Notes under the pieces: generated by a model
What the model was told of the DNA's origin: nothing
Databases searched by the model: none
What the model saw: the letters and a program-made list of their open reading frames with translations, nothing else
NCBI GenBank assembly: GCA_030065815.1
Contig: JASJCU010000001.1
Coordinates: forward strand, 1,518-65,517
Length of the DNA stretch: 64,000 bases
Direction: 5' to 3'
Source of the DNA: Gammaproteobacteria bacterium
GTDB lineage: Bacteria > Pseudomonadota > Gammaproteobacteria > Chromatiales > Chromatiaceae
Program-made: the position numbers and the translations under genes
Shown: positions 1-45,157 of the stretch, piece after piece
Position numbering within the stretch: position 1 is the stretch's first letter
Layout: each line of letters opens with the position of its first letter

Positions 1-565
1 TCTTGAGATCGTGCTCGGCGGCAAAGCGTTCGAGATCCGGCCGCCGCGCCATCGTGCCGTCCTCGTTGAGGATCTCGACGATGACCGAGGTCGGCGAGAA
101 CCCGGCCAGGCGGGCGAGATCGCAGCCGGCCTCGGTGTGACCGGCGCGCACGAGCACGCCGCCGGGCTGGGCCATCAGCGGAAAGATGTGGCCGGGCTGG
201 ACCAGGTCCTGCGGCTGGGCATCCGGCTTGACGGCGGCGAGCACCGTCGTCGCGCGGTCGGCGGCCGAGATGCCGGTCGTGACGCCTTCGGCGGCCTCGA
301 TCGACACCGTGAAGTTGGTCGACTCGAGCTGGTTGTCGGTGTTGACCATCAGCGGCAGGCGCAGCTGGCGGCAACGCTCCTTGGTCAACGTCAGGCAGAT
401 CAGGCCGCGGCCGTACTTGGCCATGAAATTGATCGCCGCGGGCGTGGTCCTTTCCGCGGCGATGACCAAATCGCCCTCGTTTTCGCGGTCTTCGTCGTCC
501 ATGATGATGACCATGCGGCCCTGGCGCAGGTCCTGGATGATGTCTTGTGAGCTGTTCAGTTCCAT
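1..565 (-). CDS. ribBA: RibBA, 5' part only (3,4-dihydroxy-2-butanone-4-phosphate synthase domain); the gene runs off the left edge
   Basis: Reverse translation from the ATG at 565..563 reads [38 protein letters not shown]...[12 protein letters not shown]...[14 protein letters not shown], the classic RibB domain. It is absent from the ORF track because it has no stop inside the window. The + ORFs 11..550 and 186..635 are its shadows. Confidence 0.85.
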
Positions 566-595
566 GCGACTGAAAAGAAAGCGGAAAACGGTACA

Positions 596-1255
596 GTGTA
601 CCGGTTTTCGCGGCGCGGAGAAATTGCTGCCGTGAGCGATACCGAGGGCGTCGTCAAATACACGCTCGATTACCGCGCGAGCGCACTGCCCGACGACGCC
701 GACATCGACGGCCTGTTCCACTGGTTCTTGCGCTGCCGGCAACGCCGCCTGATCGGCCGCGACCCGGAACGCTACGACGGCTACGCGTACGGCAACATCA
801 GCGTGCGTGCGGCACGCGGCTTCGTGATCTCGGCGACCCAGAGCGGCGGCGAGCCGGCACTGGCGGCCGACCGGCTGGCCTGGGTCGAGGACTTCGACAT
901 CGCCGCCAACCGCCTGCGTGCCGGCGGACCGGCGCGGCCATCGTCGGAGGCGATGACGCACGGCCAGGTGTACCGCGCACTGCCGGCCGTAGGTGCGGTC
1001 ATCCACGTGCACTCGCCGCTGCTGTGGCGGCTCGCAACGCGGCTCGGCATTCCGGTTACGCCGCCGTCCGCCGCCTACGGTACCCCGGCGATGGCGACCG
1101 CGGTCGAGCGCCTGCTGCGCGCCGACACGACGCCGACCGGACTGTTCGCGATGGGCGGGCACGAAGACGGCGTCGTCGCCTACGCCGCGACCATCGACGC
1201 CGCCGGCCGACACCTGTTCACGGCCCTCGACCGCGCCGAGGCGCTGGCAGGCTGA
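596..1255 (+). CDS. class II aldolase/adducin-family protein
   Basis: Track ORF 596..1255. It has a GNISVR...ISATQSG segment and the metal-site-like AVIHVHSP motif typical of class II aldolase/adducin folds. The start is uncertain (GTG 596 or GTG 632). Confidence 0.65.
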
Positions 1256-1270
1256 ACCGGCGTCGGGCGC

Positions 1271-2233
1271 TCAGCGCCACACGACGTCGCGGTAGTACAG
1301 CTCGAGGCTCTCCTCGGCGACGCTGCGCTGCAGCGCGTCGAAGGCCGGACCGGTCCAGCCCTTGGCCCAGCAGTCACGCAGCAGCCAGGTATTGACGACG
1401 CGCCGCCCCGGCCAGTCGAGCTGGCGGATGCGCACGTCGCGCAGCAGCGGCTTACCGGCGTACTGCGCCTGCTTCCAGTCGTAGAACAGCGTCGACTGGG
1501 TCACGCCGCGGCGCAGCGTGACACTCGGCCATGCCGCACGCTGCTCGGCATCGAGGCCGGTGAACGCGCTGATGCCCTGCACGGGGCTGAAGTCACGGTC
1601 GCTGAACGGACCACCGAGCAGCCGCGGCGCGCTGACCGCGCACAGCCCGGCCTCGACGCCGTCGATCTCGACGCTGAAGTTGTGCGCCGGCAGCAGTTCC
1701 TCGTCGACCAGTTGTGACGGCAACAGCAGCGGGCTGCCGGCGATCACCGCACCGCTCGGCGCACGGAACGTCACCTCCATGTCGAGCGCCGGCAGGCGCC
1801 CGTAGTCGGCGTCGACCTTCTCCGGCATGCCGAGCACGACACCGCCGGCGAACGCCGCCAGCGCCTTTTTGAGGTAGCTGCCGAGCCGCGTCGCGCGCTC
1901 GCCGGGGGCGGTCGCCGTCGCCTCGAACACGGACTCGGCGCCGTCGATGCACAGCGTCGTCGGCGTCGCGCGGGCGAACGCGAGCAGGCGCTCGAGCGCG
2001 CTCTTCTCGTCGGCTAGGGTACGCCCGCGCAGCGCGAGGTCGACATGCACGAACGCGTCGCCGGCGGTACTCGCCAGCAGCTGGGCGCAGTACACGCGAT
2101 CGCGCGGCTGGCCACCCAGCGCGAGCACGCGCACGCCGCCGCTGCGGCGGCGACGCTTGTCCGCGAGCGCGAGTATCGCCGTCGGATCGCGGCGGCTGAA
2201 GGCGAAGCGCGGGCGCGCCACGGCGGTCGGCAC
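1271..2233 (-). CDS. fusion protein: degenerate AAA+ (pseudo-ATPase) N-domain plus T4 gp19-like tail-tube C-domain
   Basis: The start is GTG 2233, 2 nt after the stop of the upstream tube gene (TGAcgGTG). The ATG at 2449 would overlap that gene. The N-half aligns by eye to eCIS/CDC48-type AAA modules, but Walker A is GGQPRDRV and Walker B is LCIDGAES. The C-half has AHNFSVEIDGV ... DCWAKGWTGP ... LELYY, which are tube-family hallmarks. Confidence 0.65.
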   Translation of the reverse strand: MPTAVARPRFAFSRRDPTAILALADKRRRRSGGVRVLALGGQPRDRVYCAQLLASTAGDAFVHVDLALRGRTLADEKSALERLLAFARATPTTLCIDGAESVFEATATAPGERATRLGSYLKKALAAFAGGVVLGMPEKVDADYGRLPALDMEVTFRAPSGAVIAGSPLLLPSQLVDEELLPAHNFSVEIDGVEAGLCAVSAPRLLGGPFSDRDFSPVQGISAFTGLDAEQRAAWPSVTLRRGVTQSTLFYDWKQAQYAGKPLLRDVRIRQLDWPGRRVVNTWLLRDCWAKGWTGPAFDALQRSVAEESLELYYRDVVWR

Positions 2234-2235
2234 CG

Positions 2236-2724
2236 TCAGTCCTCGATCTCGATACCACCGTGCGCGAGTACCAGTTCCTCGATCGCGACCGCGCTGCTGG
2301 TACTGTCGAGGGTCGGACCGGTGTACTTGATCGGCCAGGCATCGCTGACCTTCCAGACGACGACCTCGTTGCGGGCCTCGTCGAGCAGCTTGATCTGCCC
2401 GCTGGCGCGCTGCGGCTTGCCGCTGACCGACTGCGCGAACCACTGCCACAACGTCAGGTCGCCGGTGATGCCGCGCTTGAGCACGATGTCGGCGTAGCGC
2501 ACCAGACCGGGCAGTCGGCGCGGCGTCAGCAGGCGGTCGTTGCCATTGCGGTACGCGATCGTTTCCTGCTCGACGCTGAGGCCGCTGACCTCGCTGAAGC
2601 CTCCCTGTACCGTGGCCCCGAGGATGCCGACGTCGACGAACTCGACGAGGAAATTGAACGCCGCATACGGGTCTTCTCTGACAACCGGCACGCTACCCCT
2701 CCCCTGCGGCAGCGCCGCAGCCAT
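2236..2724 (-). CDS. phage T4 gp19-like / eCIS tail-tube family protein
   Basis: 162 aa. Motifs DPYAAFNFLVEFVDVG..FSEVSGLSVEQETIAYRNG...LPGLVRYADIVLKRGITGDLTLWQW...DAWPIKYTGP...IEELVLAHGGIE match the conserved phage tail region protein pattern. Confidence 0.8.
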   Translation of the reverse strand: MAAALPQGRGSVPVVREDPYAAFNFLVEFVDVGILGATVQGGFSEVSGLSVEQETIAYRNGNDRLLTPRRLPGLVRYADIVLKRGITGDLTLWQWFAQSVSGKPQRASGQIKLLDEARNEVVVWKVSDAWPIKYTGPTLDSTSSAVAIEELVLAHGGIEIED

Positions 2725-2778
2725 GTGCTATTTTTTCCTAACGCCCCAATTAAGGCCCAACACAGGGAAGGCTTCAAG

Positions 2779-3210
2779 ATGCCCAACCGCAGATCGTTCG
2801 ACCACATCGGCGCCTTCAACTTCCTGCTCGAGATCGAAGGCGTCACGCAGGGCCCCGTCAGCTACGTCAGCGGGCTTACAGCGCGCACCGACGTCGTCAG
2901 TTTCAAGGACGGCAGCGACACCACGGTGCGCAACCGCCCGGGACGCAACCGCTGCGACAACATCATCGTGCGCCGCGGTTACAACAACGTCGACGACCTC
3001 TACGGCTGGTACGACAAGGTCCGCGACGGCAAGGTCGAGCGCAAGGCCGGTTCGGTGATCATCGCCGGCGACGACGCCAGCGAGATCACCCGCTTCAACT
3101 TCTACGAGGCCTGGCCGTGCCGCTGGAGCCTGCTGACGCTGGATGGCGAAGACAGCTCGACGCTGCTCGAGGAGATCGAGATCGCCGTCGAACGCATCGA
3201 GAAAGCCTGA
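2779..3210 (+). CDS. phage T4 gp19-like / eCIS tail-tube family protein (second stand-alone paralog)
   Basis: 143 aa from ATG 2779, preceded by agggaagg. Motifs GAFNFLLEIEGV..VSGLTARTDVVSFKDG...IVRRGY..LYGWY...NFYEAWPCRWS...LEEIEIAVERIE. Confidence 0.8.
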   Translation: MPNRRSFDHIGAFNFLLEIEGVTQGPVSYVSGLTARTDVVSFKDGSDTTVRNRPGRNRCDNIIVRRGYNNVDDLYGWYDKVRDGKVERKAGSVIIAGDDASEITRFNFYEAWPCRWSLLTLDGEDSSTLLEEIEIAVERIEKA

Positions 3211-3266
3211 CCGCGACATCGCGGCGCGCTTCCACGGGCGCGCGAGCCCGGTTAGGCTGACACCGC

Positions 3267-4181
3267 GTGGACACCAAGAACGGAAAAACCATCTCCCTGG
3301 CGCTCGGCAGCGGCGGCGCCCGTGGCCTAGCCCACATCGGCGTGATCCGCACGCTCGAACGCGAGGGCTGGCAGATCGGCGCGATCAGTGGCAGCTCGAT
3401 CGGCGCGCTGATCGGCGGCTTCTACGCCGCCGGCAAGCTCGACGACTACGCTGAATGGGTCCAGGAGATCACCGAATTCAACGTCCTGCGCTACCTGGAC
3501 ATCGCCTGGGGCGGCGCCGGCATGCTCAAGGGCGAGATGCTGATGGAGACGCTGCAGGAGTTCGTCGGCCGCCACCGCATCGAGGACCTACCGATCCCAC
3601 TGACGATCGTCGCGACCGACGTGCTGACCCGCAAGGAGATCTGGCTGCACCGCGGCGACCTGTTCGATGCTATTCGCGCATCGATCGCGGTGCCCATGAT
3701 ATTCACACCACACACGGTGAATGGCCGGCCGCTGCTCGACGGCGGCATCCTGAACCCGGTGCCGATCGCGCCGACGCTGCAGGACCCAACCGATGCGATC
3801 TTCGCGGTCAGCCTCGCCGGCGTGCCGAAGAAGCCGGGCGGCAGCAGCCGCCGCAGTCATGTGCCGGTCGAGAAGCCAAAGCACCGCTACCACAAGGCGA
3901 TCGAGGCCTTCATCGACCAGCTGCAGGACAAGCTCGGCCTCAGCGACGATCGGGACGGTAGCGACGGCCCGAGCCTGTCGATCACCGACACCGCGCTGCT
4001 GTCGCTGGACGCGATGCAGGCGTCGATCGGGCGCTGCATGCTCGCCGCCTATCCGCCGGACCTGCTGATCGAGGTACCGATCAACACCTGCGGCGCGCAC
4101 GAGTTCTACCGTGCTGCCGAGGTCATCAGGGCCGGCGAGGAATCGACCGAGCGGGCGCTGGAGCGATTCGAACGGGGATGA
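3267..4181 (+). CDS. patatin-like phospholipase (RssA-like)
   Basis: Oxyanion motif GSGGARG, nucleophile elbow GSSIG (GxSxG) and catalytic Asp motif LLDGGILNPVP are all present. GTG start at 3267. Confidence 0.85.
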   Translation: MDTKNGKTISLALGSGGARGLAHIGVIRTLEREGWQIGAISGSSIGALIGGFYAAGKLDDYAEWVQEITEFNVLRYLDIAWGGAGMLKGEMLMETLQEFVGRHRIEDLPIPLTIVATDVLTRKEIWLHRGDLFDAIRASIAVPMIFTPHTVNGRPLLDGGILNPVPIAPTLQDPTDAIFAVSLAGVPKKPGGSSRRSHVPVEKPKHRYHKAIEAFIDQLQDKLGLSDDRDGSDGPSLSITDTALLSLDAMQASIGRCMLAAYPPDLLIEVPINTCGAHEFYRAAEVIRAGEESTERALERFERG

Positions 4182-4210
4182 CCGACGCGCTAAGGGGGCG
4201 CGCGGACCGG

Positions 4211-4600
4211 CTACTCGGCCAACACCGGCGGCGCCGGCTGCGCGTAGCCGTAGCCGGATTGCGGCGGCGCGTAGGCATACGGCGCGTAGCGGCCCCAGTA
4301 TGGCGCACGATGGTTATAGCCACGCCCCCACGCGTCGCCGGCTCCGTAACCACTGCCGTACCCGCGCATGTTGCTGCTGGCGCGGCCGGACAGGCTCATA
4401 CTGAAGTCCGCGCCGCCGGCGGCATCACCGCCGCGGAACTGCTCGCCGCCGTGCCCGCCGGCCCCGTAGCCGCTGCCGAGGCCGTAGTTCGGAACCCAGC
4501 CGTTGCCGGCCCACGGGCCGCTCATCGGGCCGCCCCACCAGGCCACCGCCGTTGCCGACAGGCCAATGCCGGCGGCCATTACCACGATTCTTGCAATCAT
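4211..4600 (-). CDS. Gly/Tyr-rich secreted protein, putative sulfur globule protein (Sgp-like)
   Basis: 129 aa. N-terminal hydrophobic signal (MIARIVVMAAGIGLSATAVAW), then GYG/GSGYGAG/YAPYAYAPP low-complexity sequence and a central ADFSMSLSGRASSNMRGYG segment. Strong SD (gaggagaggca) before the ATG at 4600. Paralog of 14641..14964. Confidence 0.55.
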   Translation of the reverse strand: MIARIVVMAAGIGLSATAVAWWGGPMSGPWAGNGWVPNYGLGSGYGAGGHGGEQFRGGDAAGGADFSMSLSGRASSNMRGYGSGYGAGDAWGRGYNHRAPYWGRYAPYAYAPPQSGYGYAQPAPPVLAE

Positions 4601-5119
4601 TGCCTCTCCTCACCGTTGCCTGCAGTCGCAGCGCGGCGGCGTGCGCCTACCGCGCCTGGCTGGGTAAAAGAATGCGGGTGGAGGGGCGTGCATATGCCTT
4701 GCGCGATGTGGCTATTCGACATGGTCATGGCGCCGCCGGGGCCGCCGAGACCGACCATGGGCGCGGCGAGACGCCCGCCTGGGCCGACTGACGGCTAACG
4801 CGGTAACGCCTCCGGTCGTGGACGCCGTGTCCGGCCACGCGACGCTGCCGTGGCCGGTCCCCGGCCCGACCGATCAGGCGGCGTGCAGCGTGGTCTCGAT
4901 CGTGGACGACACCGCACCCGACCGCGTCGTGGGCGTCGCCAGCGCGAGCGCGCACGGCACAGCCGTGAATCCTTGGGACGACACACGACGGGAACCGCAG
5001 GCGCGCGCCCGCGCGGTGCCGAACGCGTTACCCATCGGCACAGCCAATGCCGCGCAAGCGCGCCGTGTACCGGCACTGGCGAATGGGTCTGAATGACAGA
5101 TTGGGGGCAGGACAGGACG

Positions 5120-5782
5120 CTATCGGTCGACGAAGCCCGCGCGCGCGAGCATCGCCAGATCGATCGGCGGCACGCCGGCATCCGCGGCACGCTCGCCGAG
5201 CAGCAGTCGTTCGAGGTAGCGCGCGACCAGGTCGACCTCGAGGTTGACCTCGCGATCGGCCGCATAGCCGTGCATGATCGTCTCCTGCAGCGTGTGCGGC
5301 ACGATGTTCAGCTCGAAGCGGTTGCCATGCACGGCGTTGACGGTCAGGCTGGTTCCATCGACCGTGATCGATCCCTTGTGCGCGATGTAGCGGGCCAGTT
5401 CGCGCGGCGCCTCGATCGTGAAACGCACCGAACGTGCATCGTCGTGACGCTCGATGACGCGACCGAGGCCATCGACGTGGCCGCTGACCAGGTGCCCGCC
5501 GAGTCGCGTCGCCAGCGTCAGTGCCTTTTCCAGGTTCACCGGGCTGCCCCGTTGCAGCCGGCCAAGGCCGGTCAGCGACAGCGTTTCGCGCGACACATCG
5601 GCGACGAAACCGTCACCGGGCAGCTCGACCGCGGTCAGGCACACGCCGTTGACGGCGATGCTGTCGCCGGGGGCGACGTCGCCGAGATCCAGTTTGCCGG
5701 TGCGAATACGCAGCCGCATGTCGCCGCCACGCTGCTCGAGCGCGGCGACCTCGCCGACCGCCTGGATGATCCCGGTGAACAT
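5120..5782 (-). CDS. ribE: riboflavin synthase (alpha chain)
   Basis: MFTGIIQAVGEV...GDSIAVNGVCLTAV... followed by a second lumazine-binding repeat (GSITVDGTSLTVN). Confidence 0.92.
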   Translation of the reverse strand: MFTGIIQAVGEVAALEQRGGDMRLRIRTGKLDLGDVAPGDSIAVNGVCLTAVELPGDGFVADVSRETLSLTGLGRLQRGSPVNLEKALTLATRLGGHLVSGHVDGLGRVIERHDDARSVRFTIEAPRELARYIAHKGSITVDGTSLTVNAVHGNRFELNIVPHTLQETIMHGYAADREVNLEVDLVARYLERLLLGERAADAGVPPIDLAMLARAGFVDR

Positions 5783-5798
5783 GCTCGGTACCTCCTGC

Positions 5799-6935
5799 TC
5801 ACCCGCGCCGCGGGCGAAGCGTCAGGCGCAGGTCATCACCGACCCGGCGCACATCGTCGAATCCGAATCCCAGCCGCTGCTCCATCGCGTCGACGCCGGG
5901 CAGATCGACCAGCGCCCGCGCCGCATGGCCCATCAGGTGCGGCGCCTGGTAGACGATCAGCTCGTCGACCAGACCGGCCTGCAGCATCGCGCCGGCCAGC
6001 GTCGACCCGCTCTCGACCAGTAGCTCAATGACGTCGCGCGCGGCGAGCATCGCCAGCACGCTCTGCAGGTCGATGCGGCCGCCGATCTGCGGCAGGCGCT
6101 CGACATCGGCGCCGGCCTCGCGCAGCTCGGCCTCGCTGTCGGCCGGTGCACCCTGTCCGCAGACCACGAGCGTGTCGCCCGCGAGTTGCAGCATGCGCGC
6201 CCGCGGCAGCATACGCAGTCGGGTGTCGAGCACGACGCGCAGCGGCTGGCGCACGTCGTCGCTGGCGTCGACACCGCGCAAGTCTGTGCTGCCGAGGCGT
6301 ACGTTCAGCGACGGATCATCGGCAAGCACGGTGTCGATGCCGGTCATTATCGCACTGCTGCGCGCGCGCAGGCGCTGGACGTCGCGGCGCGCCTGCTCAC
6401 CGGTGATCCACTGGCTCTCGCCGCTGGCCATCGCGGTGCGGCCGTCCAGGCTCATCGCCAGTTTGCAGCGCACGTAGGGCCGCTGCCGGCGCATGCGCAT
6501 CAGGAATCCGGGATTCAGCGCCTCGGCGTCCGCTTGCAGCAGGCCGACCGCGGCGTCGATGCCGGCGTCGCGCAGTCGCGCCACGCCGTGTCCGGCGACC
6601 AGCGGGTTCGGATCCTCGATCGCCGCGACGACGCGCGCGACCCGCGCTGCAATCAGCGCGTCGGCACAGGGTGGCGTACGGCCGTGGTGCGCGCACGGCT
6701 CCAGTGTCACGTATACGGTGGCGCCCGCGGCCCGGGGCCCGGCGGCGTCCAGCGCGAGGCGTTCGGCGTGCGCCGCGCCGGCGCGGCGGTGCCAGCCCTC
6801 GCCGACGACGCCGCCGTCGTTGACGATGACGCAGCCGACGCGCGGGTTGGGGTCGGTCGTGAACAGGCCGAGTTCGGCGAGGTGCAGCGCCCGCGCCATG
6901 TACCGGCGGTCGTCGGCGCTGAACGACACTGTCAT
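5799..6935 (-). CDS. ribD: bifunctional riboflavin biosynthesis deaminase/reductase RibD
   Basis: CMP/dCMP deaminase zinc motif (HAERLAL...[14 protein letters not shown]) followed by the reductase domain. Its ATG overlaps the nrdR stop (ATGA). Confidence 0.92.
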
Positions 6936-9227: not shown

Positions 9228-9304
9228 TGGGGTGGACGATGGGGATCGAACCCACGACCACTGGTGCCACAAACCAGGGCTCTACCAACTGAGCTACGCC
9301 CACC
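9228..9304 (-). tRNA. tRNA-His (anticodon GTG)
   Basis: Hand-folded cloverleaf: extra G-1 paired with C73 (the His identity feature), TAGCTCAGTTGGTAGAGC D-arm, anticodon loop TTGTGGC, GTGGG-TTCGATC-CCCAT T-arm and an encoded CCA. Confidence 0.9.
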
Positions 9305-9316
9305 ATAAACTGTGTC

Positions 9317-9398
9317 GGTGCGCCGCCCGCAACCGCGGCGGACCTGGCGCATGATCCGGTGCGCCGCCCGCAACCGCGGCGGACCTGGCGCATGATCC
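9317..9398. repeat. perfect 41-bp tandem duplication in the tRNA-Arg/tRNA-His spacer
   Basis: ggtgcgccgcccgcaaccgcggcggacctggcgcatgatcc occurs twice back-to-back (9317..9357 and 9358..9398). Confidence 0.95.
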
Positions 9399-9408
9399 CC
9401 GGGAACCG

Positions 9409-9485
<77 letters not shown>

Positions 9486-9500
9486 CGAACTGGTACGGTT

Positions 9501-9577
9501 TGGTCGGGGTAGAGAGATTCGAACTCCCGACATCCTGCTCCCAAAGCAGGCGCGCTACCAGACTGCGCTATACCCCG
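9501..9577 (-). tRNA. tRNA-Pro (anticodon TGG)
   Basis: Hand-folded: acceptor CGGGGTA/TACCCCG, anticodon stem CCTGC/GCAGG with loop TTTGGGA, T-arm GGGAG-TTCGAAT-CTCTC, encoded CCA. Confidence 0.9.
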
Positions 9578-10591: not shown

Positions 10592-11293
10592 TCAGCCAGC
10601 CCCGGGCGGCAACGCCGCGGCACGTGCCAGGAACGCTGCAACGGGTTCACCGCAGGCGCGCAGCGCGACGCGCGGCTGCAGCGACAGCTTGACGACGTCG
10701 CCGTCGACATCGAACTGCTCCCGCCCCAACAGCATCACCAGGCGCCGACAGAACGCGTTGCCCTGCTCGACGTCGTCGCACTGCAGGTAGACCAGGAAGC
10801 GGTCGCCGTCGCGCATCGGCAGGTCGCCTTCGCGCGTCTGACCGCGCACCGCACGGCCGGCGACGTCCAGCAGCCGGTCGACCGCGGCGCGCCCGTGGCG
10901 TCGTTCTACGGTGTCGAGGTAGGCGAACCCGATGATCGCAAGCGCCAGCTGACTGCGGCCGGCACGATCATCGCGGGCGGCCAGGTTGGACACCACCTCG
11001 TCGACGTAACTGCGCCGGTAGAGGCCGCTGACCGGATCGCGCAGCAGGTCGTCGGCGGCGGCGCCGCGCGCCCGCTGCCCGACAGCCGCGGCGACACCGA
11101 ACAGCACCGCGGCGGCGACAATCAACAGCGCCTGATCGCTCGTGACCGGCCCGCCTGGCGTCGCCGACACCAGCTCTGCCGCGGGCCGCACCGAGACGCC
11201 GATCGCCATGCCGACCAGTGCGATCCCGGCACCGGCCAACCCGATCGCCGCACGTCGCAGCGGCCTGCCCGTCGTCCCGTCCAGTATCCTCAT
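10592..11293 (-). CDS. membrane-anchored GGDEF-like domain protein with a degenerate active site
   Basis: Two N-terminal hydrophobic helices, then SGLYRRSYVDE...HGRAAVDRLL...MRDGDRFLVYL. DGDRF occupies the position of GG(D/E)EF. The start is uncertain (ATG 11293 or 11308). Confidence 0.6.
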   Translation of the reverse strand: MRILDGTTGRPLRRAAIGLAGAGIALVGMAIGVSVRPAAELVSATPGGPVTSDQALLIVAAAVLFGVAAAVGQRARGAAADDLLRDPVSGLYRRSYVDEVVSNLAARDDRAGRSQLALAIIGFAYLDTVERRHGRAAVDRLLDVAGRAVRGQTREGDLPMRDGDRFLVYLQCDDVEQGNAFCRRLVMLLGREQFDVDGDVVKLSLQPRVALRACGEPVAAFLARAAALPPGAG

Positions 11294-11418
11294 CGACCCG
11301 CAATCCATTCGTGTTGTTGTTGGCCGCGTTAGCGGCCGCGCGGCGGTTTTTTGAACGCACCCGGGGCGTGTAGAATCGCCGCCTTCGCATCCCATCCGGC
11401 CGCAACCGGCAGAGGACC

Positions 11419-13086
11419 ATGGCCCAGTACATCTACACCATGAACCGCGTCAGCAAGACCGTGCCGCCCAAGCGCCAGATCCTGCGCGACATTTCGCTGT
11501 CCTTCTTCCCGGGCGCCAAGATCGGCGTGCTCGGACTCAACGGCGCCGGCAAGTCGTCGCTGCTGCGGATCATGGCGGGCGTGGACAGCGACATCGACGG
11601 CGAGGCACGGCCGCAGCCGGGCATCAAGGTCGGCTACCTGCCGCAGGAACCGCAGCTCGACGCGGCCAAGGACGTGCGCGGCAACGTCGAGCAGGCGCTC
11701 GGCCATATCACCGAGGCGCAGGCCGAACTGGACAAGGTCTATGCCGCCTACGCCGAGCCCGATGCCGATTTCGACGCACTGGCCAAGCGCCAGGCCGAAC
11801 TCGAGAACATCCTGCAGGCGTCCGACGGCCACAACCTCGAACGTCAGCTCGAGGTCGCCGCCGACGCGCTGCGCCTGCCGCCGTGGGACGCCGACGTGAC
11901 CAAGCTGTCCGGCGGCGAGCGCCGTCGCGTCGCACTGTGCCGGCTGCTGCTGTCCAAGCCGGACATGCTCCTGCTCGACGAGCCGACCAACCACCTCGAC
12001 GCCGAATCCGTGGCGTGGCTCGAACGCTTCCTGCACGACTACCCTGGCACCGTCGTTGCCGTCACCCACGACCGCTACTTCCTCGACAACGTCGCCGGCT
12101 GGATCCTCGAACTCGACCGCGGTCACGGTATCCCGTGGCAGGGCAACTACTCGTCGTGGCTGGAGCAGAAAGAGGCGCGCCTCGAGCAGGAAGAGAAGCA
12201 GGAGGCCGGTCGCATCAAGACGATGAAGCAGGAACTCGAGTGGGTGCGGCAGAACCCGAAGGGTCGCCAGGCCAAGAGCAAGGCACGCCTGGCCCGCTTC
12301 GAGGAACTGCAGAGCCAGGATTTCCAGAAGCGCAACGAGACCAACGAGATCTACATCCCGCCCGGCGAGCGCCTCGGCGACCTGGTCATCGAGGCCGAGG
12401 GGCTGCAGAAATCGTTCGGCGACAAGCTGCTGTACAAGGATCTGAGCTTCAACCTGCCGAAGGGCGGCATCGTCGGCATCATCGGCCCGAACGGCGCCGG
12501 CAAGACGACGCTGTTCCGCATGCTGAGCGGCGACGAGACGCCGGACGCCGGCGAGCTGCGGATCGGCGACACGGTCAACATCGCCGCGGTCGACCAGAGT
12601 CGCGATGCGTTGAACGACACGCACACGGTCTGGCAGGAGATCTCCGACGACCAGGAGATCATCACGGTCGGCAACTTCCAGATGCCGTCGCGCGCCTACT
12701 GTTCGCGGTTCAACTTCAGGGGTTCGGACCAGCAGAAGAAGGTCGGCGACCTGTCCGGCGGCGAGCGCAACCGCGTGCACCTGGCGAAGCTGCTGAAGTC
12801 CGGCGGCAACGTGCTGCTGCTCGACGAACCGACCAACGACCTCGACGTCGAGACCCTGCGTGCGCTCGAAGAGGCGCTGCTCGCGTTCCCCGGCTGCGCC
12901 GTCGTGATCTCGCACGACCGCTGGTTCCTCGACCGCATCGCGACCCATATTCTGGCCTTCGAGGGCGACTCCGAGGTGGTCTGGTACGAGGGAAACTTCG
13001 CCGACTACGAGGACGACAAGAAGCGCCGCCTCGGTGACGACGCCGTCAACCCACACCGCATCAAGTACAAGCGGATCGACGCCTGA
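11419..13086 (+). CDS. ettA: energy-dependent translational throttle ABC-F ATPase EttA
   Basis: MAQYIYTMNRVSKTVPPKRQILRDISLSFFPGAKIGVLGLNGAGKSSLLRIMAG... Near-colinear with the EttA pattern, with two ABC cassettes (LSGGERRRV and LSGGERNRV). Confidence 0.95.
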   Translation: MAQYIYTMNRVSKTVPPKRQILRDISLSFFPGAKIGVLGLNGAGKSSLLRIMAGVDSDIDGEARPQPGIKVGYLPQEPQLDAAKDVRGNVEQALGHITEAQAELDKVYAAYAEPDADFDALAKRQAELENILQASDGHNLERQLEVAADALRLPPWDADVTKLSGGERRRVALCRLLLSKPDMLLLDEPTNHLDAESVAWLERFLHDYPGTVVAVTHDRYFLDNVAGWILELDRGHGIPWQGNYSSWLEQKEARLEQEEKQEAGRIKTMKQELEWVRQNPKGRQAKSKARLARFEELQSQDFQKRNETNEIYIPPGERLGDLVIEAEGLQKSFGDKLLYKDLSFNLPKGGIVGIIGPNGAGKTTLFRMLSGDETPDAGELRIGDTVNIAAVDQSRDALNDTHTVWQEISDDQEIITVGNFQMPSRAYCSRFNFRGSDQQKKVGDLSGGERNRVHLAKLLKSGGNVLLLDEPTNDLDVETLRALEEALLAFPGCAVVISHDRWFLDRIATHILAFEGDSEVVWYEGNFADYEDDKKRRLGDDAVNPHRIKYKRIDA

Positions 13087-13118
13087 TCGCCCGGACTCCA
13101 CCCGTGAGGGCCATACCG

Positions 13119-14564
13119 ATGATGTCCAGACTGTTGCCTGTCGTCTGCCTAGTCTTGGTTGCGGCGCTGGCGATCCCGGGCCGGGCGGCGCCCCCGGCGG
13201 TCGCCGACGGCGCGCACGCCGAATCCCTGCCGAGCCCCGCGGTCGCCGAGCCGCGACGCGGCAACGTGCGCCTGAGCAGCGTGCTGGCGTCCGGCGGGGA
13301 GCCCTTCCCCGGCACCCACTTCACGGTGCTGCGCGACCAGCCGGGCACCTTCGGCGAGGCGCGCCAGCACATCATGGCGCGTGCCGGACCCAAGGCAGTC
13401 GCCGATTTCCGGCTCAGCGCCGACCGCTACCGTGTCCGGGTCCGCAACGGCGCCGTGTCGGCAACGCAGACCATCGACGTGCCGGCAAGCGGTGACCTGA
13501 GTGCGCAGATCGTGCTCGGCGCCGCCGAGCTGCGCCTCGCGGCGACCCTCGACGCGTCCGGCACGGCGGCCGAGCAGGCATGGTTCCGGATCCTGCGTGA
13601 CGCCACCGACGCCTACGGCAACCCGGTGCGGGAGCAGGTCGCCAGCGACGGCTACGGCGACGCGGCCCGCTTCGTGCTGCCGGCCGGCGACTACGTCGCC
13701 GAGGCCCGCTACGGCGACGCGACGGTGCAGCGGCCGGTCACGCTGCGGGCCGGTGAGCGCCGCCGCCTCGACCTGGTCCTCGGCGCCGGGCGGCTCGATC
13801 TCGTCGCGACGCTGAGCGCCGACGGCGAACCGGTCGGTGGTGTCGACTTCACGCTGCTGCGGCACGGCGACGACCCGGGGTCGCCGCTGGTCGAGGTGGC
13901 CGGCGCCGACACCACGGCCGCGGTGTCGTTCGTCGTGCCGCACGGCGACTACGTCGCGCGGGCGCGCCTCGACCGCGCCGTCGTCGAGGCCCCGGTGACT
14001 GTCGTCGCCGGCGAGGCGGCCGCGCTCGAACTGCCGCTGCAGGCCGGTGAGCTGGTGGTCCATGCGACATTGGCCGGCCGTGACGACGCGCTGCTCGACA
14101 GCTGGTTCGAGGTACGACCGGACACCGACGACGACGGCGGCGCACCGGCGGCCGCGCGCGGCCCGGGCGACCGGGTGCGTTTCGTGCTGCCGTCCGGCAC
14201 ACACCGCGTGCGCGCACGCCACGGCCGCAGCGCGGGTTCGGCGCGCGTCGACATCGCGCCCGGGACCGCGCAGACGCTGGCCGTGGCGCTCGACGCCGGC
14301 CGCGTCAGCGTCAGCCTGGTGCAGGCCGACGCGGCGGACGCGCAGCACCACACCTGGTTCTCGGTGTATCGCATCGAGCACGACGCCGCCGGTCGCGAAC
14401 GCCGCGAACGGGTTTACAACGACGGCTATTTCGCGAGTACCGACATCGTGCTGCCGGCCGGCGACTACATCGCCTATGCGCAGGCCGCCGGCAGACGCGG
14501 CGAACGGCGCTTCGCCGTCGAACCCGGACGCCTGCAGCGGGTGGAGATCAGGGCCAGCCGTTGA
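13119..14564 (+). CDS. secreted protein made of five tandem ~85-aa repeats (beta-sandwich-like module)
   Basis: Signal-like N-terminus MMSRLLPVVCLVLVAALAIPGRAAP. Five repeats share the pattern F.(V/I)(L/Y)R...(F/I)VLP(A/S/H)G.Y.A.A......V.(V/L).AG......L.AG.L. ATG 13119 is preferred over GTG 13104. Confidence 0.65.
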   Translation: MMSRLLPVVCLVLVAALAIPGRAAPPAVADGAHAESLPSPAVAEPRRGNVRLSSVLASGGEPFPGTHFTVLRDQPGTFGEARQHIMARAGPKAVADFRLSADRYRVRVRNGAVSATQTIDVPASGDLSAQIVLGAAELRLAATLDASGTAAEQAWFRILRDATDAYGNPVREQVASDGYGDAARFVLPAGDYVAEARYGDATVQRPVTLRAGERRRLDLVLGAGRLDLVATLSADGEPVGGVDFTLLRHGDDPGSPLVEVAGADTTAAVSFVVPHGDYVARARLDRAVVEAPVTVVAGEAAALELPLQAGELVVHATLAGRDDALLDSWFEVRPDTDDDGGAPAAARGPGDRVRFVLPSGTHRVRARHGRSAGSARVDIAPGTAQTLAVALDAGRVSVSLVQADAADAQHHTWFSVYRIEHDAAGRERRERVYNDGYFASTDIVLPAGDYIAYAQAAGRRGERRFAVEPGRLQRVEIRASR

Positions 14565-40673: not shown

Positions 40674-41153
40674 TCAGATATACAGGCAGATATCCGACTC
40701 GCCGGCGAACTCGAAGAATCGCGCAGCGCCGGCGAACTCGATGCCGTCGATGAACGCGGAGGTGTCCATATCGAACAGGTCGACGGTCATCTGGCACGCG
40801 ATCAGGCGTACCTCGGCCTCCTGGCACAGCTCGCGCAGTTCCTCGAGACTCGCGACACCCTTGCTGGCCATCTTCTTCTTCATCATGGAGGTCATCATGC
40901 CCTCCATGCCCGGCAGCGCGGTCAGCAGCGTCGGGAACCACTTTTCCATACCCATCGGCATCGGCATTCCAGGGTTACCGAGCGGTGTCACCTTCAGATC
41001 GAGGTCTTTCTTCAGCAGCTGCAGACCGTAGAACGTGAAGAAGATCTCCGTCTCGTAGCCCAGCGCCGCTGCGGTCGAGGCGAGAATGAACGGCGGGTAG
41101 GCCCAGTCGAGCGAACCCTTGGTGGCGATGATGGCAAGTTTCTTCTCTTCCAT
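40674..41153 (-). CDS. DsrE/DsrF-superfamily protein (DsrE2-like sulfur relay component)
   Basis: 159 aa. KLAIIATKGSLDWAYPPFILASTAAALG...FFTFYGL...RLIACQMTVDLF. Its position directly downstream of tusA and rhd matches the rhd-tusA-dsrE2 arrangement. Confidence 0.7.
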   Translation of the reverse strand: MEEKKLAIIATKGSLDWAYPPFILASTAAALGYETEIFFTFYGLQLLKKDLDLKVTPLGNPGMPMPMGMEKWFPTLLTALPGMEGMMTSMMKKKMASKGVASLEELRELCQEAEVRLIACQMTVDLFDMDTSAFIDGIEFAGAARFFEFAGESDICLYI

Positions 41154-44689: not shown

Positions 44690-45157
44690 TCAGGCCTTCG
44701 GCGCGAGCTGATCGTCGCGCAAGCGCGGCGTGAAGTAGTCGTCGGCGTCGTCGAGATCGACGTCGGCGCCGTCCTTGTCGACCAGCGGCTGATCATAGTC
44801 TTTCCAGCCGCGCAGACCGGTCTTCAGCGAGACCACGTTCCCGTAACCGAGCAACATCATCGAATGTGCCGCCAGCACGCTGCGGTAACCGGAACGACAC
44901 ACAACCACGACCTCGCGATCGCGTGCGCGCACCAGTTCGGGCTCGGTTTCCTCGTAGTCCCATTCGCAGGCCGATTCGAGGATACCGCGTGGGACACTCA
45001 ACGAACCGGCAATGTGCATCGCGTCGAACTCGTAGGGCTCGCGGACGTCGACGACCAGCAGATCGGGGTTGGCGCGCATCCGCTCCTCGAGGTCCCAGGG
45101 CATGATCTCGCCGACGTCGCGCAGGCAATCGCTGACCAGTTGCAGAAAGTGTTTCAT
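44690..45157 (-). CDS. rhodanese-domain protein
   Basis: VVDVREPYEF...HIAGSLSVP...VVCRSGYRS active-site loop. 155 aa. Confidence 0.8.
   Translation of the reverse strand: MKHFLQLVSDCLRDVGEIMPWDLEERMRANPDLLVVDVREPYEFDAMHIAGSLSVPRGILESACEWDYEETEPELVRARDREVVVVCRSGYRSVLAAHSMMLLGYGNVVSLKTGLRGWKDYDQPLVDKDGADVDLDDADDYFTPRLRDDQLAPKA

Follow-up and report, generated by a model that had tools for sequence, protein, structure and literature searches.

Why should a bacterial chromosome carry genes for tail-tube proteins in the middle of a riboflavin biosynthesis locus? This question is raised by a 64,000-nucleotide stretch of contig JASJCU010000001.1 from a gammaproteobacterium of the Chromatiaceae (hereafter the window), in which three adjacent genes between positions 1271 and 3210 encode relatives of the inner-tube proteins of extracellular contractile injection systems (eCIS). 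Two of these, tubeA and tubeB, encode free-standing tube proteins; the third encodes a fusion of a tube domain to a degenerate AAA ATPase core. A sequence-only reading of the window had grouped the trio with the neighbouring patatin gene. The comparisons described here favour, with a probability of about 45%, a self-contained eCIS-derived cassette that keeps inner-tube parts only and whose product would be a ring-like or tubular assembly that has no sheath, needs no ATP and is nucleated or capped by a hexamer of the fusion protein.

Results

Three tube paralogues without an injection machine

The window has a GC content of ~68%, and coding frames were picked with a filter on GC content at third codon positions. 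All three tube paralogues proposed from the sequence are real, as they match PF06841 far above chance, and the N- and C-terminal strand motifs quoted for them were found in the translations. The fusion gene (1271-2233, minus strand; 320 aa) matched with an E value of 3.9e-14 over residues 183-316, tubeA (2236-2691, minus strand), which is of the canonical contractile injection system (CIS) tube type, with 8.1e-39, and the divergent paralogue tubeB (2779-3210, plus strand; 143 aa) with 1.1e-26. The corresponding bit scores were 53, 132.9 and 93.6 (cut-off 28.2), covering profile positions 2-133. Against TIGR02241 (cut-off 62.4 bits), TubeA (111.9; E = 2e-32) and TubeB (80.2) scored above and the fusion (55.6) below the cut-off, and each of the three proteins also matched the CIS5/CIS1 NCBIfam models at scores under the equivalog cut-off. 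TubeB is 32% identical to TubeA and 33% identical to an eCIS tube protein (P0053).

The junction between tubeA and the fusion gene reads 'gac TGA cg GTG ccg', confirming the 2-nt gap noted earlier, and this short spacing makes translational coupling likely. The start of tubeA was revised from ATG 2724 (162 aa) to GTG 2691 (151 aa) in an alignment of the window with six orthologous loci; the GTG is preceded by GGGAGGGG, and the orthologues measure 151-152 aa. tubeA and tubeB are indeed divergent, as had been described, but with the revised start the spacer between them is 87 bp long (2692-2778) rather than 54 bp. A MAFFT alignment of this spacer from the window and loci L001, L002 and L004-L007 revealed two conserved motifs, GCCTTAATT (2748-2756) and GGAAAAAATAGCA (2726-2738); GCCTTAAT was kept even in L002, where the fusion protein is just 53% identical. 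The two motifs are candidate promoter or operator elements by their conservation, and we withheld the label 'promoter' because their spacing is inconsistent (17 versus 20 nt). A consensus scan of positions 500-4800 detected no promoter-like or terminator-like sites and no sigma-70 match in the intergenic region; this agrees with the earlier remark that no obvious terminator lies between tubeB and the patatin gene.

Membership in an eCIS was assessed against the eight core subunit types of Chen et al. (2019; PMC6899500). The inner tube (Afp1/Afp5 type) is represented by the three PF06841 proteins, with their TIGR02241 and CIS5_fam matches. Neither a contractile sheath (Afp2/3/4; PF04984) nor baseplate or spike proteins (Afp7, Afp8, Afp9, Afp11; PF19266, PF04717, PF04965) occurred among the scanned window open reading frames (ORFs) or in the gene tables of L001, L002, L012, L013 and L015; a PF04984-type sheath was present in two comparison loci, L009 and that of protein P0160. 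The same comparison yielded no functional AAA+ ATPase (Afp15) and no cap (Afp16/Pvc16_N), just the Walker-A-less AAA core fused to a tube domain. Pfam searches with another 30 ORFs from the 13-64 kb region returned no sheath, baseplate, spike or cap family, and housekeeping families only (purL, dapA, bamC, two-component systems, pepN, molybdoenzymes and others). Within the 64-kb window, the claim of an orphan tube set without sheath or baseplate genes, enclosed by housekeeping genes on both sides, was upheld.

The fusion protein joins a dead AAA core to a modified tube domain

Database searches returned ~25 close homologues of the fusion protein (53-75% identity), all of ~321 aa, and in a 24-sequence alignment the N-terminal half was as conserved as the tube half. 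The AlphaFold2 model (pLDDT 74.9) contains two domains, an AAA alpha/beta core (residues ~1-157, nt ~1763-2233) and a CIS-type tube domain (residues ~183-320, nt 1274-1687), joined by a disordered linker (residues 158-184), all on the minus strand. In Foldseek searches the tube domain matched Pvc1, Afp1, Pvc5 and other CIS tubes (E ~1e-7), with Hcp structures also among the matches, and the N-domain matched the AAA cores of p97/Cdc48, Rix7 and NVL (E ~6e-5 to 2e-4, rmsd ~3.5-4 Å over ~160 columns). A sequence search of the Protein Data Bank gave nothing significant for the AAA half, the tube half alone being matched; the AAA likeness surfaced through fold search and profile search.

Compared with the hallmarks of PF00004, the N-domain has the alpha/beta core fold and lacks the Walker A motif (GxxGxGK[ST]), the Walker B motif (hhhhDE) and the C-terminal helical lid. 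The Walker A position reads LALGGQPRDRV, with no GK[ST], and aligns with GPPGTGKT of katanin as G-G-Q-P-R-D-R-V. Walker B in the window subfamily is C-I-D-G, with glycine in place of the glutamate, and the AAA domain stops at about residue 157, where the disordered linker takes over. An AAA fold without Walker A, Walker B glutamate or lid means that the description as a pseudoATPase::tube fusion, given earlier from the sequence, is correct. Five residues at the degenerate nucleotide site (G40, G41, R44, D45 and R46) are invariant in the 24-sequence alignment.

The tube domain is also modified. AlphaFold2 predicted a complete tube fold for TubeA, including a protruding beta-hairpin made of strands 43-47 and 58-65. 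The counterpart of this hairpin in the fusion protein (residues 202-236) was predicted as coil and two short helices, the latter within residues 217-233, with the remaining tube fold kept.

Conservation and mobility of the trio

Trio gene order is identical in the window, L001, L002, L004-L007 and L036, and the trio is intact in at least seven fully examined loci (the window and at least six orthologous ones). The 2-nt gap that separates tubeA from the fusion gene in the window is replaced by an overlap in L001 (1 nt) and L002 (8 nt). TubeB is the most conserved member (58-81% identity between loci) and is confined to the trio subfamily. Pairwise Nei-Gojobori dN/dS ratios were 0.18-0.33 for the fusion gene, 0.09-0.48 for tubeA and 0.08-0.33 for tubeB (0.10-0.22 for the patatin gene), at dS values from 0.5 to saturation. 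By these alignments the trio is shown to be a genuine conserved unit under purifying selection.

Three unrelated genomic contexts harbour the trio: the rib locus of the window, L002, where the neighbours are a Crp-family regulator and a GMC oxidoreductase, and L004, where they are CBS-domain proteins, a permease and repeat debris. The L004 cassette has a GC content of 62.1% versus 57% in its flanks, which is consistent with horizontal acquisition. Two copies have decayed. The first (L003, 9803-10856) consists of a frameshifted fusion gene and the last tubeA codons, beside a transposase gene and repeat debris, in the same metagenome-assembled genome (MAG) that carries the intact L004; the second (L020, 5068-5729) is a deletion relic in which an internal loss of ~1.6 kb left fusion residues 251-319 and TubeB residues 37-143 between the aldolase and patatin genes. 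The cassette is therefore dispensable, yet it is no relic in the window, and its distribution over these loci shows that its gain or loss did not depend on the neighbouring genes.

The intact L004 copy and the decayed L003 copy are both followed by similar non-coding or repeat sequence (11400-13300 and 10877-12710, respectively). The likeness shows as shared translations of spurious ORFs, e.g. '...RLRAETVA...LLRSDRRPTAS.QRRKPQTAQAGAVTAHKGG', and may mark a repeat or mobile element that moved together with the cassette.

The existence of decayed copies would suit the view that the tube genes are a non-functional remnant of a decaying eCIS locus, a possibility raised earlier as the 'decayed tip' of such a locus. 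We find this barely credible for the window copy, which is intact, as are at least six other loci, with dN/dS ratios between 0.08 and 0.48 at dS values up to saturation. Moreover, the degenerate AAA site keeps its five invariant residues, fusions of the same architecture persist at 25-41% identity, and decay is confined to L003 and L020.

The adjacent patatin is a resident of the riboflavin locus

The patatin gene (3267-4181, plus strand) encodes a protein with a strong PF01734 match (E = 2.3e-30; 106.7 bits versus a cut-off of 27.7), and the catalytic set named earlier, GSGGARG, GSSIG and DGG, was confirmed in the translation, so that oxyanion, nucleophile and catalytic motifs are all present. 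It shares fold and full catalytic motifs with RssA-like patatins; RssA is also its best NCBIfam match, at a score (177.7 bits) that falls short of the equivalog cut-off of 272.

Could the trio build a particle without a sheath, or a sensor, by which this patatin is carried or gated? tubeB and the patatin gene lie on the same strand, 56 nt apart and with no terminator-like site between them, and their adjacency is kept in all rib-locus copies; a different patatin, of the patatin-DUF3376 type, occurs ~3 kb from the trio in L002. The rib-locus order aldolase-fusion-tubeA|tubeB-patatin-ribE is syntenic with the window in L001, L005, L006, L007/L008 and L036. As judged from this synteny, these loci represent one ancestral arrangement and do not count as separate pieces of evidence.

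A metagenome scan seeded with the patatin yielded 31 loci, at least nine of which (L017, L019, L021, L022, L024, L026, L027, L029 and L030) carry the order aldolase->patatin->ribE and no tube genes. Here the aldolase gene lies 20-320 bp upstream of the patatin gene, and the patatin is equally conserved (74-82% identity). On a neighbour-joining tree of the patatins, trio-bearing and empty loci are interleaved, which implies repeated loss of the cassette, or possibly gain. Empty and occupied aldolase-patatin intergenic regions displayed no obvious repeats or att-like sites that could be insertion scars, and the spacers are variable. Likewise, at least four contexts with tube and fusion genes are devoid of this patatin (L002, L004, L012/L013 and L015), and no patatin of any kind was found near L004, L012/L013 or L015.

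The L002 patatin-DUF3376 protein (3774-5987; 737 aa), which is unrelated to the patatin of the window and encoded three genes from the trio, is the sole other instance of tube/patatin proximity; it is probably a coincidence.

Collectively, the patatin, of a housekeeping, RssA-like type, and the aldolase are riboflavin-locus residents and not module members, which leaves a tube-patatin module highly improbable. Of the four-gene linkage proposed in the sequence-only reading, the three tube genes hold together and the patatin drops out because it failed the test of co-occurrence. The suggested tube-mimic sensor coupled to a membrane-lysing effector thereby loses its effector, while the suggested sheath-less tube or particle survives, without its phospholipase cargo, as the leading reading.

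Both halves of the fusion point to an eCIS ancestry

A search of 1.84 billion representatives with an N-domain profile gave 300 matches. After the close family came proteins of ~300-323 aa (P0148, P0150, P0154, P0158, P0163, P0174 and P0236), the shorter P0159 and the 455-aa P0167; in all nine of these fusion-type representatives Walker A is absent and a tube domain present. PF00004 matches were found among these distant members, and the seven to eight distant fusions that were examined combine a Pfam AAA domain with an intact FFDEADALFG(K/R)R Walker B. The same architecture is kept at 25-41% identity. Further profile matches were mostly proteins of 650-740 aa that aligned at their C-terminal AAA domain, and 34 of the 60 examined have the domain order WHD (PF22977) plus AAA. 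ATPases of this size and make-up are the nearest full-length relatives of the N-domain beyond the fusion family. One protein of this type, P0160, in the single context examined, is the first gene product of a canonical eCIS locus comprising ATPase, Pvc16_N cap, sheath, tube, eCIS_core, CIS_tube, spike, gp25 and baseplate genes. Distant fusions and the WHD+AAA ATPase family also have in common the signature IGETEKNL...FFDEADALFG.R...DRYAN. From this signature, the profile matches to WHD+AAA proteins and the eCIS locus of P0160, we infer that both halves of the fusion protein descend from eCIS components, the AAA core deriving from the active AAA domain of an Afp15/Pvc15-type eCIS ATPase.

Two distant contexts show the pair on its own. 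In L012/L013, overlapping genes for a 146-aa tube protein and a 323-aa fusion, in this order, lie between alanine/saccharopine dehydrogenases on one side and PhyH, a beta-lactamase-fold protein and thioredoxin on the other; in L015, a 303-aa fusion gene precedes that of a 151-aa tube protein beside a TonB-dependent receptor. No CIS parts were found around these pairs in the flanks covered by the contigs, which extend to at most 10 kb. The free partner of the distant fusions resembles TubeA (41-44% identity) more than TubeB (25-28%), and TubeA itself is 49% identical to P0053, a tube protein encoded within a canonical eCIS locus. Since the free partner is of the TubeA type and TubeA is eCIS-like, TubeA and the fusion constitute the conserved core, with TubeB as an addition in the window subfamily.

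The eCIS kinship leads to a rival explanation, in which another part of the genome encodes a full eCIS and the trio supplies satellite parts to it, namely alternative tube layers and a tube-tethered ATPase-like adaptor that would help to dock or load cargo into the tube of that machine. The eCIS descent of both fusion halves and the close relation of TubeA to a tube from a canonical locus speak for this view. So does a preprint on Pvc15 (10.1101/2023.08.15.553202), according to which D2, the sole active ATPase domain of the protein, acts as a chaperone for the signal peptides of payloads that are to enter the tube lumen, and the ATPase activity of Pvc15 requires other PVC components. eCIS loci, however, are as a rule compact and have tube genes of their own, with the eight core subunit types found together in > 85% of loci (PMC6899500), and the tube-fusion pair occurs in at least five different housekeeping contexts with no CIS gene in the up to 10 kb of flank that the contigs cover. 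We therefore rate the satellite role as rather unlikely.

A word-indexed protein search with a broad fusion alignment retrieved nearly exclusively the close family, with P0236 as the sole distant fusion, and gave no new taxonomic information. Among 185,579 species-representative genomes we counted just five loci, all in MAGs of uncultured Gammaproteobacteria. Carriers of the tube-fusion pair include the MAGs CALNYW01 (GCA_942490985.1), JAGRGY01, JAGRHA01, CAVRBK01 and GCA_039029555.1, and the samples behind these contigs are from sediment and wastewater. No fusion homologue was found on IMG/VR viral contigs, and for this reason we rejected a prophage or phage origin of the present copies.

A further explanation invokes phages as the target. 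The fusion could be a chain-terminating tube mimic that caps the tail tubes of myophages or tailocins and thus poisons their assembly, while TubeA and TubeB keep it harmless until infection. Its bulky N-terminal block and missing stacking hairpin are the expected look of such a terminator, and presence/absence polymorphism among close relatives, with cassette-like transfer, would fit a defence gene. On the other hand, a PADLOC 2.0 scan of six local proteins matched none of the three tube proteins (the patatin gave weak generic phospholipase-effector matches only), the cassette lies outside any defence island and has no linked toxic effector, and its tube domains are of the eCIS type, reaching at most 20-26% identity to tube genes on viral contigs. 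Assembly poisoning seems improbable to us on this balance.

Two observations concern the surroundings of this family. First, about 40 cluster representatives (P0156, P0164, P0168, P0170, P0172 and others) are short AAA-core proteins of 140-270 aa, some of which may be truncated gene calls. Their Walker A is degenerate or absent and the signature SKYIGETEKNL...FFDEADALFGKR...DRYAN intact; on these features they look like a single-domain pseudo-ATPase family related to the eCIS ATPase. Secondly, L010 (10001-10868) contains another orphan CIS-type tube gene (149 aa; 51% identity to TubeA) that overlaps a 146-aa ORF; a glucosaminidase gene lies on one side and an SLT lytic transglycosylase gene on the other, and the surrounding 10 kb contain no CIS genes. 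The 146-aa partner was considered as a split-off pseudo-AAA domain and rejected (hhalign probability 0.6%).

Other features of the window

The left window edge carries the ribBA N-terminus (2-565, minus strand), 89% identical to its L001 counterpart, followed by the class II aldolase-family gene (596-1255, plus strand; PF00596, E = 8.5e-14). To the right of the patatin gene lies a Gly-rich ORF of 129 aa (4211-4600, minus strand) with a weak match to the sulfur-globule-protein family PF17228 (E = 0.004), and downstream of it, in the gene order table, ribE, ribD, nrdR and glyA on the minus strand. A cluster of tRNA-His, tRNA-Arg(TCT) and tRNA-Pro(TGG) genes is located between glyA and folD (9228-9577, minus strand). 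A DsrE-family protein and a rhodanese are encoded at 40674-41153 and 44690-45157 (both minus strand); together with the Gly-rich protein, these gene products hint at a sulfur-oxidising gammaproteobacterial host.

Discussion

How might an inner tube function without the rest of the machine? In the cassette reading that we favour, the dead AAA-like domains of the fusion protein would hexamerize without ATP and thereby pre-arrange six tube domains as a ring. In solved tubes, the hairpin makes ring-to-ring contacts. Because the fusion tube domain has no protruding hairpin, only one face of its ring would be free to stack, the other bearing an AAA-like crown, and one-face stacking would assign it the role of a terminal ring, i.e. 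a nucleator or cap, for TubeA rings. TubeB would serve as an adaptor layer. The predicted product is a short, non-contractile, sheath-less assembly of rings or a tube in the cytoplasm with an axial AAA-like crown, and a client protein could be held or displayed by this assembly; the neighbouring patatin is neither its cargo nor its effector.

Several points weigh against this proposal. The architecture of the assembly is extrapolated from monomer predictions, those underlying the hairpin-loss argument being of moderate confidence, and the proposal assumes that an AAA core can hexamerize with neither lid nor nucleotide. The interdomain geometry is undefined in the AlphaFold2 model of the fusion (pTM 0.53, linker pLDDT < 30). 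Repeated loss among close relatives, as indicated by the locus comparison, marks the cassette as dispensable, and no conserved neighbour in the loci examined hints at a client or role. A full eCIS elsewhere in the carrier genomes would favour the satellite role discussed above.

A bolder version of the cassette reading, which we put forward tentatively and consider somewhat doubtful, sees an autonomous nano-assembly made solely of eCIS inner-tube parts, with no sheath and no need for ATP. In it, a hexamer of the dead AAA core, a descendant of the cargo-loading ATPase, would be joined to the hairpin-less tube domain and would nucleate or cap a short pile of TubeA and TubeB rings. Such an assembly would be a novel type of cytoplasmic container or scaffold, and the fusion would serve as a natural 'Rosetta stone' for the view that, while cargo is loaded, the ATPase ring of an eCIS sits coaxially on the end of the tube.

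The nearest known systems share parts with the cassette and differ from it in composition. The eCIS tube proteins Afp1/Pvc1 and Afp5/Pvc5 have the same PF06841/TIGR02241 fold and provide the best structural matches; unlike an eCIS, the cassette has no sheath, baseplate, spike, tape measure or cap genes nearby, and one of its tube domains is AAA-fused and hairpin-less. The Afp15/Pvc15 ATPase (WHD plus AAA, ~680 aa), which is required for eCIS cargo loading, has a C-terminal AAA domain of the classical, p97-like fold that is homologous to the N-domain of the fusion. The fusion, in contrast, retains a lone alpha/beta core without N-domain, D1 or lid, covalently tethered to a tube domain; no member of the fusion family has Walker A, and the window subfamily has lost the Walker B glutamate as well. 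Orphan hcp genes of type VI secretion systems (T6SS) likewise encode a tube-family protein apart from the main machine. They belong to the Hcp family and not to PF06841, and they serve a T6SS in the same genome, whereas no cognate machine is known here. Hcp rings act as effector chaperones, and a ring lumen that holds a client is a plausible analogy for the cassette.

In the full-text literature we found no description of orphan or sheath-less CIS tubes of this kind or of AAA-tube fusions; no NCBIfam, PADLOC or Pfam model spans the AAA::tube architecture, and the databases name these proteins merely 'phage tail(-like) protein'. The component families are known; the architecture and the conserved orphan status appear to be new. 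The proposal of an undescribed module thus stands for the orphan tube set and its degenerate AAA fusion, and not for the patatin: the tube-lipase pairing in the window is an accident of synteny.

To our knowledge, how cargo is loaded into the lumen of eCIS tubes is unresolved, and we know of no established docking site for the ATPase. That a D2-type AAA core and a tube domain are fused in a conserved natural protein argues for direct contact between the ATPase ring and the tube ring, and the cassette offers a simple two- or three-protein system in which this contact can be tested. For genome annotation, isolated 'phage tail protein' calls need not signal a prophage or a CIS locus. Finally, that a tube-only cassette has been kept under selection without sheath or baseplate in several lineages suggests exaptation of tail tubes beyond injection, much as Hcp rings double as chaperones.

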